Below are positions 1,019 through 2,164 of a stretch of DNA of 64,000 bases, in pieces. Position 1 is the first letter of the stretch. Each line of letters begins with the position of its first letter. The notes beneath the pieces were generated by a model, which was given only the letters and a program-made list of their open reading frames with translations, made no database searches and was not told the DNA's origin. The position numbers were made by a program, and so were the translations under genes. Location: sequence record PQ819470.1; one strand, written 5' to 3'. Source of the stretch: Escherichia phage ev_rybdy3.

Positions 1019-1046
1019 TTGACATGATTTTCCTGTATAGTAATAT
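1019..1046 (+). promoter_or_regulatory. sigma70-like early promoter P1
   Basis: TTGACA, 16-nt spacer, TAATAT; A-rich upstream tract. Confidence 0.55.
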
Positions 1047-1170
1047 GAATCCCGTAGTAAGCAGTAAGCAACAAGAAGTAAAACTCCTCGATAGGTGATT
1101 AGCATCACGGTAAAAGGCTTCAACGAGGAGCGGTAGGAATACCGACAGTAAGACGCACAATGAGGTGCTA

Positions 1171-1184
1171 CGCTCTTTAAAAAT
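1171..1184 (+). promoter_or_regulatory. boxA-like element (CGCTCTTTAAAAAT)
   Basis: matches boxA core CGCTCTT(T)A of lambda nut / rrn antiterminators; downstream of P1. Confidence 0.5.
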
Positions 1185-1218
1185 CAGGCTAGAAAGTGAA
1201 AATATTTTAAAAATAGTA

Positions 1219-1247
1219 TTGACACCGAAAATAGCCTGATTCATAAT
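1219..1247 (+). promoter_or_regulatory. sigma70-like early promoter P2
   Basis: TTGACA, 17-nt spacer, CATAAT; A/T-rich UP-like tract. Confidence 0.6.
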
Positions 1248-1280
1248 AAGCACTCAGTCAGCGATGACTTAAAACATCCC

Positions 1281-1294
1281 CGCTCTTTAAAAAT
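1281..1294 (+). promoter_or_regulatory. boxA-like element (CGCTCTTTAAAAAT)
   Basis: second identical copy, ~30 nt downstream of P2 -10. Confidence 0.5.
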
Positions 1295-1552
1295 ATGATT
1301 TGTCTTACAGGTGGCGGTGACGTCATTACTATAAGGCGCCCAGTTAATCGGTAGAATTGATTCCTGATTCATACGTGACGCAGGCGGACAATAAGCAATA
1401 TCAATAAGCCTTATTTGTTCGATACTTTCAAAAGATTAATGCTTGAAAGCGTACTAGATTCCTAAAAGACAAATCAGACTTATCATCTTGCCCTTTCGCA
1501 TAGATTCACGCGAGATAAGGGAAAGGAATTAAAAGAAGATGATAAAAAGAGT

Positions 1553-1581
1553 TTGACAAGCTAACACGATGTGTTAAGCTG
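1553..1581 (+). promoter_or_regulatory. degenerate promoter-like copy P3
   Basis: TTGACA present, -10 position reads AAGCTG; same spacing as P2/P4. Confidence 0.3.
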
Positions 1582-1594
1582 TGAATGTAGTAAT

Positions 1595-1608
1595 CGCTCT
1601 TTAACAAT
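1595..1608 (+). promoter_or_regulatory. boxA-like element (CGCTCTTTAACAAT)
   Basis: near-identical to E. coli rrn leader boxA (TGCTCTTTAACAAT) as I recall it. Confidence 0.5.
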
Positions 1609-1709
1609 ATGAATCATGGGTTAAGCCTCACCGCTTAATCTTCAACCCAACAAAGCGGGTTGATATATCCTCCCAATAGCGGGAACGACGAAAAAAGATT
1701 AAAAAGTGG

Positions 1710-1738
1710 TTGACAGCGAAAACAACATGATTCATAAT
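1710..1738 (+). promoter_or_regulatory. sigma70-like early promoter P4
   Basis: TTGACA, 17-nt spacer, CATAAT; spacer 3-prime half near-identical to P2. Confidence 0.6.
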
Positions 1739-1828
1739 GAGCACTCACTAAGCAAATCACCGCTTCAGTGAAAAGCGTAACAACGGCTAACAGTTGCATA
1801 GTGTGAGAAAGCACACTGATAGATTTAC

Positions 1829-1842
1829 CGCTCTTTAATAAT
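1829..1842 (+). promoter_or_regulatory. boxA-like element (CGCTCTTTAATAAT)
   Basis: fourth copy, ~90 nt downstream of P4. Confidence 0.45.
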
Positions 1843-2151
1843 TTAAACATTCTCCTATATCGGTTGAATATGCTTGATGATAATAACCATCGGAAAGCAT
1901 ACCAGATAAAACGGCGTAAAACTCCCTAGATTATCAGGGTAAACAGTTTTACATTCCCTTTCTGGAAAAGTCACCACTGATAAACGGATTCATTGAGTAC
2001 ACGCAACGGCTTAAGCTAATCGCCCACGGTTAAGGGTAGCGGCGGCCATCGCTAACACGGTGCTACAGTGAAAGAAGTTAATCAGGGTAGGCAAGTCCGA
2101 CGAATTAACGCTCAATTGAGAGCGGCGGGGAGTGGTTAAAAGTGGCAAATT

Positions 2152-2164
2152 GCTATTTAACAAT
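2152..2164 (+). promoter_or_regulatory. degenerate boxA-like element (GCTATTTAACAAT)
   Basis: one mismatch to rrn-type boxA. Confidence 0.3.

Follow-up and report, generated by a model that had tools for sequence, protein, structure and literature searches.

Antitermination mediated by Nus factors at boxA elements is familiar from ribosomal RNA (rRNA) operons, lambdoid phages, suhB and the arrays of clustered regularly interspaced short palindromic repeats (CRISPR). In the leader of the Escherichia coli rrn operons, the P1 and P2 promoters are followed by a boxB hairpin, boxA (UGCUCUUUAACAA) and boxC, and then by 16S rRNA. According to the literature boxA suffices and boxB is dispensable within this boxB-boxA-boxC order, and the rrn complex tethers the 5' end of the RNA and can deliver the rrn leader to a distant complement. 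A boxA likewise keeps Rho from terminating the long untranslated transcripts of CRISPR arrays (Stringer et al. 2020). The gamma-proteobacterial boxA consensus is GYTCTTTAANA, with mutation of C4 and T6 abolishing function at suhB (Baniulyte et al. 2017). Here we describe the early leader of Escherichia phage ev_rybdy3 (sequence record PQ819470.1; the window is the whole stretch of 64,000 nucleotides (nt) that was analysed), in which four rrn-type boxA copies each follow a predicted promoter of their own and the last copy leads into a conserved structured RNA of about 820 nt.

A single-copy precedent is found in phage T7, where CGCTCTTTAACAAT lies at positions 812-825, downstream of the E. coli promoters A1, A2 and A3 but ahead of gene 0.3, unannotated in the T7 record. 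Its likeness to boxA was probably noted long ago; the literature searched yielded no paper on a T7 boxA. Like T7, ev_rybdy3 is a virulent coliphage with tandem strong host-type early promoters followed, before the first early gene, by the same 14-mer (boxA3). Unlike ev_rybdy3, T7 has one boxA common to its three promoters, a leader of about 175-430 nt and no large structured RNA.

The window belongs to a phiEco32-like podophage of E. coli. Its leader region is 100% identical to that of Escherichia phage ev_rybdy8 and 93.7% identical to positions 72749-74745 of phiEco32 (reverse strand), and it recurs, with 75-96% identity, in about 100 genomes of Kuravirus, Suseptimavirus and Nieuwekanaalvirus. 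Early transcription runs along the + strand of the window, and the promoters and boxA copies (Table 1) occupy a gene-free spacer between the homologues of phiEco32 gene 125 (349-714) and gene 124. The SU10 genome paper describes, as in phiEco32, one promoter before the first early genes, a terminator after gene 121 (the gene 125 homologue) and three sigma70 promoters in the gene 125-124 spacer, and its supplementary table lists homologues of the window promoters at 1219, 1553 and 1710. The spacer promoters are thus previously predicted features and, together with boxA-mediated antitermination as a mechanism and the single-copy precedent of T7, are already known. New are the one-to-one promoter-boxA cassettes, the rrn-like order of hairpin and boxA, the long-range helix that goes with each boxA and, above all, the structured RNA of 0.8-0.9 kilobases (kb), which is kept in three clades and always followed by the gp124 gene. 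No paper that treats boxA together with phiEco32 was found in the literature searched, the two primary phiEco32 papers lying outside that search.

Promoter-boxA cassettes and their adjoining helices

The spacer holds four predicted strong early sigma70 promoters, of which P3 is the weaker. P1, P2 and P4 have the three best promoter scores in the first 6 kb and make up three of the six + strand sites with a perfect -35 and a good -10 in the whole 64 kb; weak promoter-like sites are not enriched in total (15 versus 14.1 expected). Directly upstream of all four promoters lie A-rich tracts (74-87% A+T). P1 is kept at the same offset in phiEco32, SU10, Paul, Bas87, E20-1 and EP335, and P4 is present in all relatives. 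P3 reads TTGACA-16-TAGAAT in several relatives, and its entry in the SU10 table is marked 'alt -10?'. No strong + strand sigma70 promoter occurs between 6 and 25.7 kb, the next one lying 23 kb downstream; the early operon spans roughly 23 kb. The first early promoter of phiEco32, upstream of gene 128, runs directly into genes and has no boxA.

Two side observations concern these promoters. The A/T tract at 1199-1215 before P2 (GAAAATATTTTAAAAAT) closely resembles the UP element of rrnB P1 (GAAAATTATTTTAAATT), and its distance to the -35 hexamer is similar too. Beyond the leader, a perfect -35 is found in just three + strand promoters, at 25730, 35236 (a full consensus TTGACA-17-TATAAT) and 38191, and none of them has a boxA after it.

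All four instances of CGCTCTTTAA(A/C/T)AAT agree without a mismatch with the published consensus for boxA (matches start at 1172, 1282, 1596 and 1830). Five matches to GYTCTTTAANA occur in the window, four of them in the leader within 670 nt, as opposed to 0.47 ± 0.67 expected, and none of 100 shuffles reaches five. The motif CGCTCTTTAAHAAT is exact at 1171, 1281, 1595 and 1829, all on the + strand, with a two-mismatch copy at 2151; at no more than two mismatches it has seven matches in 64 kb versus 1.59 ± 1.23 in shuffled sequence (0/100 shuffles reach seven). The preliminary description of this DNA, made from its letters alone, had placed sigma70-like promoters at about 1019, 1219, 1553 (with a degenerate -10) and 1710 and boxA-like copies at 1171, 1281, 1595 and 1829, and all of these coordinates hold, P1, P2 and P4 being top-scoring and the boxA copies exact. 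It had further likened the 1595 copy to the rrn leader boxA, as nearly identical, and the 1171 and 1281 copies to the boxA of lambda nutL. Both likenesses are borne out by direct comparison, since alignment to the host rrn leader gives 13 consecutive nt common to the 1595 copy and rrnB, and the other two copies carry one extra T relative to nutL.

Table 1. Features of the ev_rybdy3 early leader and its borders (window positions; promoters, hairpins and helices are predictions)
Feature	Positions	Strand	Description
Intrinsic terminator	791..819	+	Stem-loop AAGCCTCCTAGTGAGGCTT then T-run; closes upstream early operon (homologues of phiEco32 genes 128-125)
Promoter P1	1019..1046	+	TTGACA-16-TAATAT, 10/12; A-tract UP-like region upstream; predicted start ~1053
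Hairpin before boxA1	1155..1168	+	GCAC-aatgag-GTGC, 2 nt 5' of boxA1, boxB-like position; read from sequence
boxA1	1171..1184	+	CGCTCTTTAAAAAT
Helix at boxA1	1182..1241	+	5' arm 1182-1191 AATCAGGCTA; 3' arm 1232-1241 TAGCCTGATT (P2 spacer)
Promoter P2	1219..1247	+	TTGACA-17-CATAAT, 11/12; predicted start ~1254; SU10 homologue listed as early promoter
Hairpin before boxA2	1257..1268	+	GTCA-gcga-TGAC, upstream of boxA2
boxA2	1281..1294	+	CGCTCTTTAAAAAT
Long-range helix at boxA2	1291..1481	+	Arms 1291-1311 / 1461-1481; 21 nt, 81% complementary
Promoter P3	1553..1580	+	TTGACA-16-TAAGCT, TG-extended; perfect -35, 3/6 -10; predicted start ~1587; weak in this phage
boxA3	1595..1608	+	CGCTCTTTAACAAT; 13 consecutive nt common with rrnB leader; 14-mer identical to T7 early leader
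Long-range helix at boxA3	1605..1739	+	Arms 1605-1618 (overlaps boxA3 end) / 1726-1739 (P4 spacer/-10); 93% complementary
Promoter P4	1710..1738	+	TTGACA-17-CATAAT, 11/12; predicted start ~1745; closest to structured RNA
boxB-like hairpin before boxA4	1799..1818	+	UAGUGUG-AGAAAG-CACACUG, 10 nt 5' of boxA4; helix 2 of consensus structure
boxA4	1829..1842	+	CGCTCTTTAATAAT; replaced in many relatives by GCTCTTTAACAATTTA, which matches rrnB over 16 nt
Long-range helix at boxA4	1842-1855 with 2127-2139	+	5' arm directly past boxA4
Large structured untranslated RNA	1842..2641	+	~820 nt; covariation in alignment
Former 'degenerate boxA'	2151..2164	+	TGCTATTTAACAAT; paired structural element
Gene 124 (phiEco32 gp124 homologue)	2663..3562	+	299 amino acids; first gene past leader; always accompanies structured RNA
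Strong intrinsic terminator	3585..3612	+	12-bp stem then T-run, directly 3' of gene 124

Conservation was assessed in 23 related phages of three clades, among them 16 fetched genomes and metagenomic relatives of the distant clades B and C. The GCTCTTTAANAA core is invariant in all 23. Each of the 16 genomes carries three to five consensus copies, all on the + strand and alternating with TTGACA promoters; with the distant relatives included, the number ranges from two to five per genome. In ev_rybdy3 and the 23 relatives, boxA copies lie 43-153 nt past a TTGACA -35 on the + strand, and throughout about 77 phage boxA contexts variation is limited to positions that the consensus leaves free, the strand always being the transcribed one. 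The nucleotide diversity of boxA4 is 0.035 versus 0.119 for the whole leader. The boxA flanks vary, and segments replaced by unrelated sequence bring their own boxA copies. Because breakpoints of phage-phage homology coincide exactly with boxA copies (window positions 1171 and ~1480), the promoter-boxA cassettes appear to be shuffled as recombining units.

The distant relatives were recognized by gp124 homologues (47-70% identical) in public assemblies, and their leaders are barely alignable. They have a 3-kb gene-free gap before the gp124 homologue with the same alternation of promoters and boxA, the last boxA lying 887-921 nt ahead of that gene, versus 833 nt between boxA4 and the start of gene 124 here. 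The early end of Salmonella phage 7-11 lacks a boxA and this arrangement, and apart from chance matches a scan of IMG/VR with 16-mers recovered only Kuravirus genomes that were already known. Separately, the four loci of the distant clades have an extra 1.5-2 kb without called genes before the first promoter-boxA cassette, and their neighbouring genes are oppositely oriented. A near-boxA (CGCTCTGTAACAAA) is also present at 4610-4623 on the - strand of the window, antisense in the open reading frame (ORF) 4389-4832, with a perfect GCTCTTTAACAA in EcoN5 and IMEP8; it is probably there by chance.

Direct comparison with reference sequences allowed the cassettes to be set against the rrn and lambda sites. 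The boxA region of rrnB is cacTGCTCTTTAACAATTTATCAG, in a leader that reads GCCGCTGAGAAAAAGCGAAGCGGC-AC-TGCTCTTTAACAATTTATCAG...TGTGTGGG, and exact identity to rrnB extends over 13 nt in the window (at 1595); in many relatives the boxA closest to the RNA reaches 16 nt, and a cassette of one distant relative reaches 20 nt. The phage leader resembles rrn in its tandem strong sigma70 promoters with A/T-rich upstream regions, in the hairpin a few nt before boxA, in the identical boxA core (13-20 nt), in a post-boxA sequence that forms the 5' strand of a long-range helix, and in a long structured untranslated RNA downstream. It differs from rrn, where one boxA is common to two promoters, in having four promoter-boxA cassettes, in the absence of a recognisable boxC and of a GC-rich discriminator after the -10, and in an RNA of about 0.8 kb that is unrelated in sequence to rRNA and continues into protein-coding genes. 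The lambda sites nutL (CGCTCTTAAAAATTAAGCCCTGAAGAAGGGC) and nutR (CGCTCTTACACATTCCAGCCCTGAAAAAGGGC) likewise place a boxA in phage early transcripts, which in lambda engages NusB-NusE, boxA1 and boxA2 being the copies with one extra T. Unlike here, where the hairpin comes first and the core is of the full rrn type, lambda has boxA and then boxB, requires the N protein and lacks the third U in its boxA. The chromosomal boxA sites offer further parallels: that of CRISPR arrays is of the rrn type and precedes a transcript that is long and untranslated (Stringer et al. 2020), and the consensus GYTCTTTAANA applies both to the phage copies and to the boxA in the suhB 5' untranslated region (Baniulyte et al. 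2017). Those are, however, single copies, whereas the virulent phage has multiple copies that correspond one-to-one with promoters and lead into a structured RNA.

The preliminary description had regarded partner boxB hairpins as not confidently assignable. Hairpins can in fact be found, yet their place is 5' of boxA and they have no conserved loop. Short GC-containing hairpins stand 0-3 nt (sometimes about 12 nt) 5' of boxA in otherwise unrelated cassettes, for example GCAC..GUGC-ua, GGCAA..UUGCC-c, GGCUAG..UUAGCC-u and GGCAC..GUGCC-c, and their loops and stems differ by cassette (AAUGAG, GCGA, AGAAAG, GAAA, ACUU and others). The hairpin before boxA4 shows compensatory changes in three of its seven pairs. 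Hairpin followed by boxA is the order of rrn, as seen in the rrnB reference, and the reverse of that of lambda; this position and the unconserved loops therefore argue for an N-independent, rrn-type site and against an N-type boxB.

On its 3' side, each boxA adjoins the 5' strand of a predicted helix whose partner lies 45-290 nt downstream, the partner strand at boxA1 and boxA3 being the spacer or -10 of the next promoter. At boxA1 the 5' arm begins inside or just past the element, and relatives have compensatory variants (e.g. UAGGCU/AGCCUA in Bas93). The boxA2 helix has a perfect 11-nt core (1296-1306 with 1466-1476) and its segment is deleted in some relatives, and the boxA3 helix has a z of -6.3 for 1600-1749 and a compensatory change in IMEP8. 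From cassette to cassette and clade to clade, the helix sequences change and complementarity is kept. The longest perfect complement of 53 distinct post-boxA arms averages 8.2 nt, versus 6.2 nt for control positions in the same leaders, and 57% of the arms versus 11% of the controls reach 8 nt (p = 2.6e-13, a value somewhat inflated by relatedness).

A large structured RNA between boxA4 and gene 124

The last 820 nt of the leader are a conserved, heavily covarying structured RNA that is independently supported in two distant clades. We aligned 16 phages over 1740-2665, an interval that includes three helices outside 1842-2641, and obtained a consensus fold of 248 pairs in 39 helices in which 98.7% of the cells are paired and 69 pairs are changed on both sides. 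Shuffled controls gave 28.6 ± 3.1 such pairs, none of 500 reaching 69, and sliding the 3' partners by 1-3 columns left 6-11 of them with 34-47% of the cells paired. In this RNA, helix 4 closes domain I (1842-2139) and helix 20 closes domain II (2160-2438), with a hairpin (2140-2158) between the two domains; a series of 3' hairpins (2439-2641) follows and ends just before the ribosome-binding site of gene 124; two hairpins stand upstream of boxA4, at 1781-1796 and, boxB-like, at 1799-1818. The stretch from P4 to gene 124 is as conserved as its coding neighbour, with a nucleotide diversity of 0.119 as compared with 0.096, 0.063 and 0.322 at codon positions 1, 2 and 3 of gene 124.

In the distant clades, 63-76% of the pairs of this structure are satisfied in a crude alignment, versus 37-45% with slid partners. 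Folded alone, clade B yields 219 pairs, 81 of them compensatory (slid controls 9-14), and clade C 276 pairs with 56 compensatory (slid controls 1-5). A covariance model of the sub-domain 2266-2380 found all four clade B loci at the equivalent position (E 7e-21 to 1e-3), and nothing in clade C, phage 7-11, T7 or lambda. Because 10.5% of paired cells are G.U, the functional RNA is assigned to the + strand; we rejected the opposite strand, on which pairing would drop from 98.7% to 88.5%. No Rfam 15 family was found in the region 700-2700, where the four matches at E <= 10 all fall far below thresholds. A host origin or mimicry was likewise rejected, as blastn of the 921-nt RNA against 5,426 complete E. 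coli genomes gave no match.

Hidden coding was rejected on three grounds. First, there is no + strand ORF of at least 30 codons in 991-2654, and the longest stop-free run in the leader is 41 codons versus 72 ± 17 in shuffled sequence (0/500 shuffles as short). Second, stop triplets are enriched (149 versus 114 ± 7 in shuffles). Third, substitutions in the leader show no 3-base periodicity. Scattered coding sequence calls in the leader annotations of relatives were set aside, as they are inconsistent from genome to genome. The earlier statement that 720-2650 contains no convincing ORF is thus confirmed, and of the view that this is a 1.9-kb non-coding leader the non-coding part stands and the notion of a mere leader does not, since its last 820 nt are the structured RNA.

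A fifth, degenerate boxA had been proposed at about 2152. This element should not be counted as boxA, because it lacks the critical C4 of the consensus and takes part in the conserved structure. Helix 19 joins its GCUAUUU to AAGUGGC, and helix 20 joins ACAAUAAGG to GCCUUAUUGU. No other 14-mer of the leader is as conserved (diversity 0.014). The AAGUGGC upstream of it could also pair, with one mismatch, with the GCUCUUU of boxA4 (1830-1836), and the stretch 2140-2164 could be a boxA mimic or an anti-boxA switch.

A further possible contact joins the two domains. AUCGCCCAC (2019-2027) and GUGGGCGAU (2314-2322) are a perfect 9-bp complement with two compensatory changes in TH34 (AUCACCUAC/GUAGGUGAU); clade C keeps both motifs and clade B the 3' one only. 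The pairing may be an inter-domain tertiary interaction that competes with two local hairpins, and we left it out of the structure because it has no partner in clade B.

With more than 200 base pairs and covariation support in three clades, the leader is among the very few large structured RNAs seen in coliphage. It resembles GOLLD and ROOL in being a phage-carried RNA of several hundred nt with many covarying helices, and differs from them in that it has no Rfam match, resides in a coliphage, is predicted to be transcribed early from its own boxA module and invariably precedes the same protein gene. The chance that it represents a family of its own among large non-coding RNAs of phages is substantial. 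In one reading, short of an even prospect, the RNA (820-900 nt) may be more than a 5' untranslated region and represent a new class of large structured phage non-coding RNA that is made in bulk during the first minutes of infection and possibly works with gp124. The boxA array would then have the task that it has in rRNA operons, the synthesis and folding of the RNA. It would be part of an expression module copied in design from those operons, with tandem UP-type promoters, a boxB-like hairpin, boxA and a tethered 5' end that lets long-range helices close, and possible targets of the RNA would include host takeover, anti-defence, replication and packaging.

Putative modification of the host polymerase at the leader

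We consider it likely, from the arrangement of these elements, that the leader directs an N-independent, rrn-type Nus-factor modification of host RNA polymerase. Host sigma70 polymerase would start at the four tandem promoters with their A-tract upstream regions and, about 10-120 nt past each predicted start, transcribe first a short hairpin, next a boxA of the rrn type (GCUCUUUAANAA) and then the 5' arm of a helix with a distant partner. The boxA would recruit host NusB-NusE(S10), presumably together with NusA, NusG and SuhB, and the polymerase so modified would be the N-independent, Rho-resistant and fast form used for rRNA. By keeping the 5' end of the RNA tethered to the polymerase near the exit channel, boxA may help the long-range helices of the 820-nt RNA to close. 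We infer Nus-factor binding, Rho resistance and assisted folding at this leader. A modified polymerase would be needed because 0.9-1.6 kb of untranslated RNA precede the start codon of gene 124 and because the early operon of about 23 kb has no other strong sigma70 promoter, and one boxA per promoter makes sense if polymerases from P1 otherwise travel about 780 nt unprotected.

Several points weigh against this mechanism. Certain of the predicted pairings would mask boxA. In the consensus fold most of boxA4 is unpaired, and the one helix that touches it, helix 3, shows no covariation and is broken in two sequences; the fold of clade C pairs its last boxA through a long-range helix. boxA3 lies only about 9 nt from the predicted start of P3, and no conserved boxC (GU-rich, UGUGUGGG) follows any of the boxA copies, the 5' strand of the long-range helix standing there instead. 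The tandem copies could partly reflect duplication of cassettes by recombination. Sensitivity of the leader to Rho is assumed: it is not C-rich overall (C 18.7%, G 22%), and for Rho-loading (rut) sites its composition gives weak hints only, in a few short stretches with C > G. Moreover, rrn-type complexes are weak at reading through intrinsic terminators, and a strong one follows gene 124.

An alternative raised in the preliminary description is that the boxA-bearing RNAs act as a sponge, soaking up NusB-NusE (and SuhB) and titrating them away from rRNA operons so as to cripple host rRNA synthesis and ribosome assembly, with antitermination secondary or absent. Several perfect, presumably high-affinity rrn-type boxA copies per transcript, made from the strongest promoters of the window, would suit such a role, as would the variation of the consensus copies from two to five among phages, as if dosage mattered. 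However, one boxA soon after every start, beside a hairpin and a long-range helix, fits action in cis, for which the 820-nt structured RNA and the long promoter-poor operon downstream provide a direct need. T7 moreover manages with a single boxA, and no sequence feature speaks specifically for titration. We therefore regard titration as unlikely; it and antitermination are not mutually exclusive.

Somewhat less probable still are lambda-type nut sites, at which boxA and the adjacent hairpin would act with a phage N-like protein to give full antitermination, intrinsic terminators included. Such terminators indeed occur downstream at 3585, 5061 and 5232, hairpins adjoin every boxA, and boxA1 and boxA2 differ from the nutL boxA (CGCTCTTAAAAAT) by just one extra T. 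Yet the hairpins lie 5' of boxA, in the rrn order, and because neither their loops nor their stems are alike from cassette to cassette, they offer no shared loop for a protein to recognise. The phage copies also carry the full rrn-type UUU core, the type that binds NusB-NusE without N, and six neighbouring ORFs gave no match to an antiterminator family in a check that was not exhaustive.

It is very improbable that the motifs are DNA-level elements (protein sites, origin iterons or recombination hot spots) or passive passengers of a duplicated promoter cassette whose likeness to boxA is coincidental. The coincidence of homology breakpoints with boxA copies and the shuffling and duplication of cassettes are in keeping with such a view. 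By contrast, it does not account for a motif that is restricted to the transcribed strand in about 77 contexts, always downstream of promoters, that matches boxA over 11-20 nt with variation only at free positions, and that persists in cassettes with unrelated flanks and in clades with non-alignable leaders. Passive passengers would diverge as fast as the sequence around them, whereas boxA4 has a diversity of 0.035 versus 0.119. Least plausible of all is a repressive boxA as at suhB, where according to the literature Nus factors at boxA repress by promoting Rho termination, so that the Nus complex would here block translation or favour Rho termination and attenuate early transcription: in suhB-type cases no more than about 50 nt separate boxA from the start codon, the nearest copy here is 833 nt from that of gene 124, and the four copies precede a long RNA that, because of its purifying selection and covariation, is clearly meant to be made.

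On the basis of rrn-type modification at the leader, multiple boxA copies at the head of a virulent-phage early operon would be a different deployment of Nus/boxA antitermination, and the cassettes suggest that use of the rRNA elongation machinery is routine among virulent coliphages, T7 being one of them. The leader raises the questions of whether the rrn complex acts as an RNA-folding machine on a non-ribosomal RNA, why boxA stands beside the 5' strand of a long-range helix, and what a 0.8-kb early phage RNA does. These questions of RNA folding, of the boxA-helix pairing and of the role of the RNA are directly testable because phiEco32 has a well-developed transcription toolkit in E. coli.

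Features bordering the leader

Upstream, the site of the 791..819 terminator is also annotated as a terminator in SU10. The 121-amino-acid ORF at 349-714 (phiEco32 gp125 homologue) is called 'terminase' in RefSeq and in PHROG 13168; this label looks like a propagated mis-annotation because the protein is small, has a hydrophobic N-terminus and lacks a terminase domain match.

Downstream, gp124 is found only in phiEco32-like coliphages and a few metagenomic relatives. Its homologue here gave only sub-threshold coiled-coil noise in Pfam and a PHROG match to a family of unknown function, and a gp124 AlphaFold model (mean predicted local distance difference test score 64) had no Foldseek match in the PDB with E below 0.79. 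The phage furthermore supplies a sigma factor of its own plus a sigma70 inhibitor. Because a strong terminator ends gene 124, the leader RNA and gene 124 may form a unit with a dosage of its own, from which transcription continues only in part into the remaining early operon, in which further intrinsic terminators occur at 5061 and 5232. The only Rfam match in the window at gathering level is a transfer RNA gene at 9093-9165 (+ strand, 72.4 bits), which lies within the early operon downstream of the leader.

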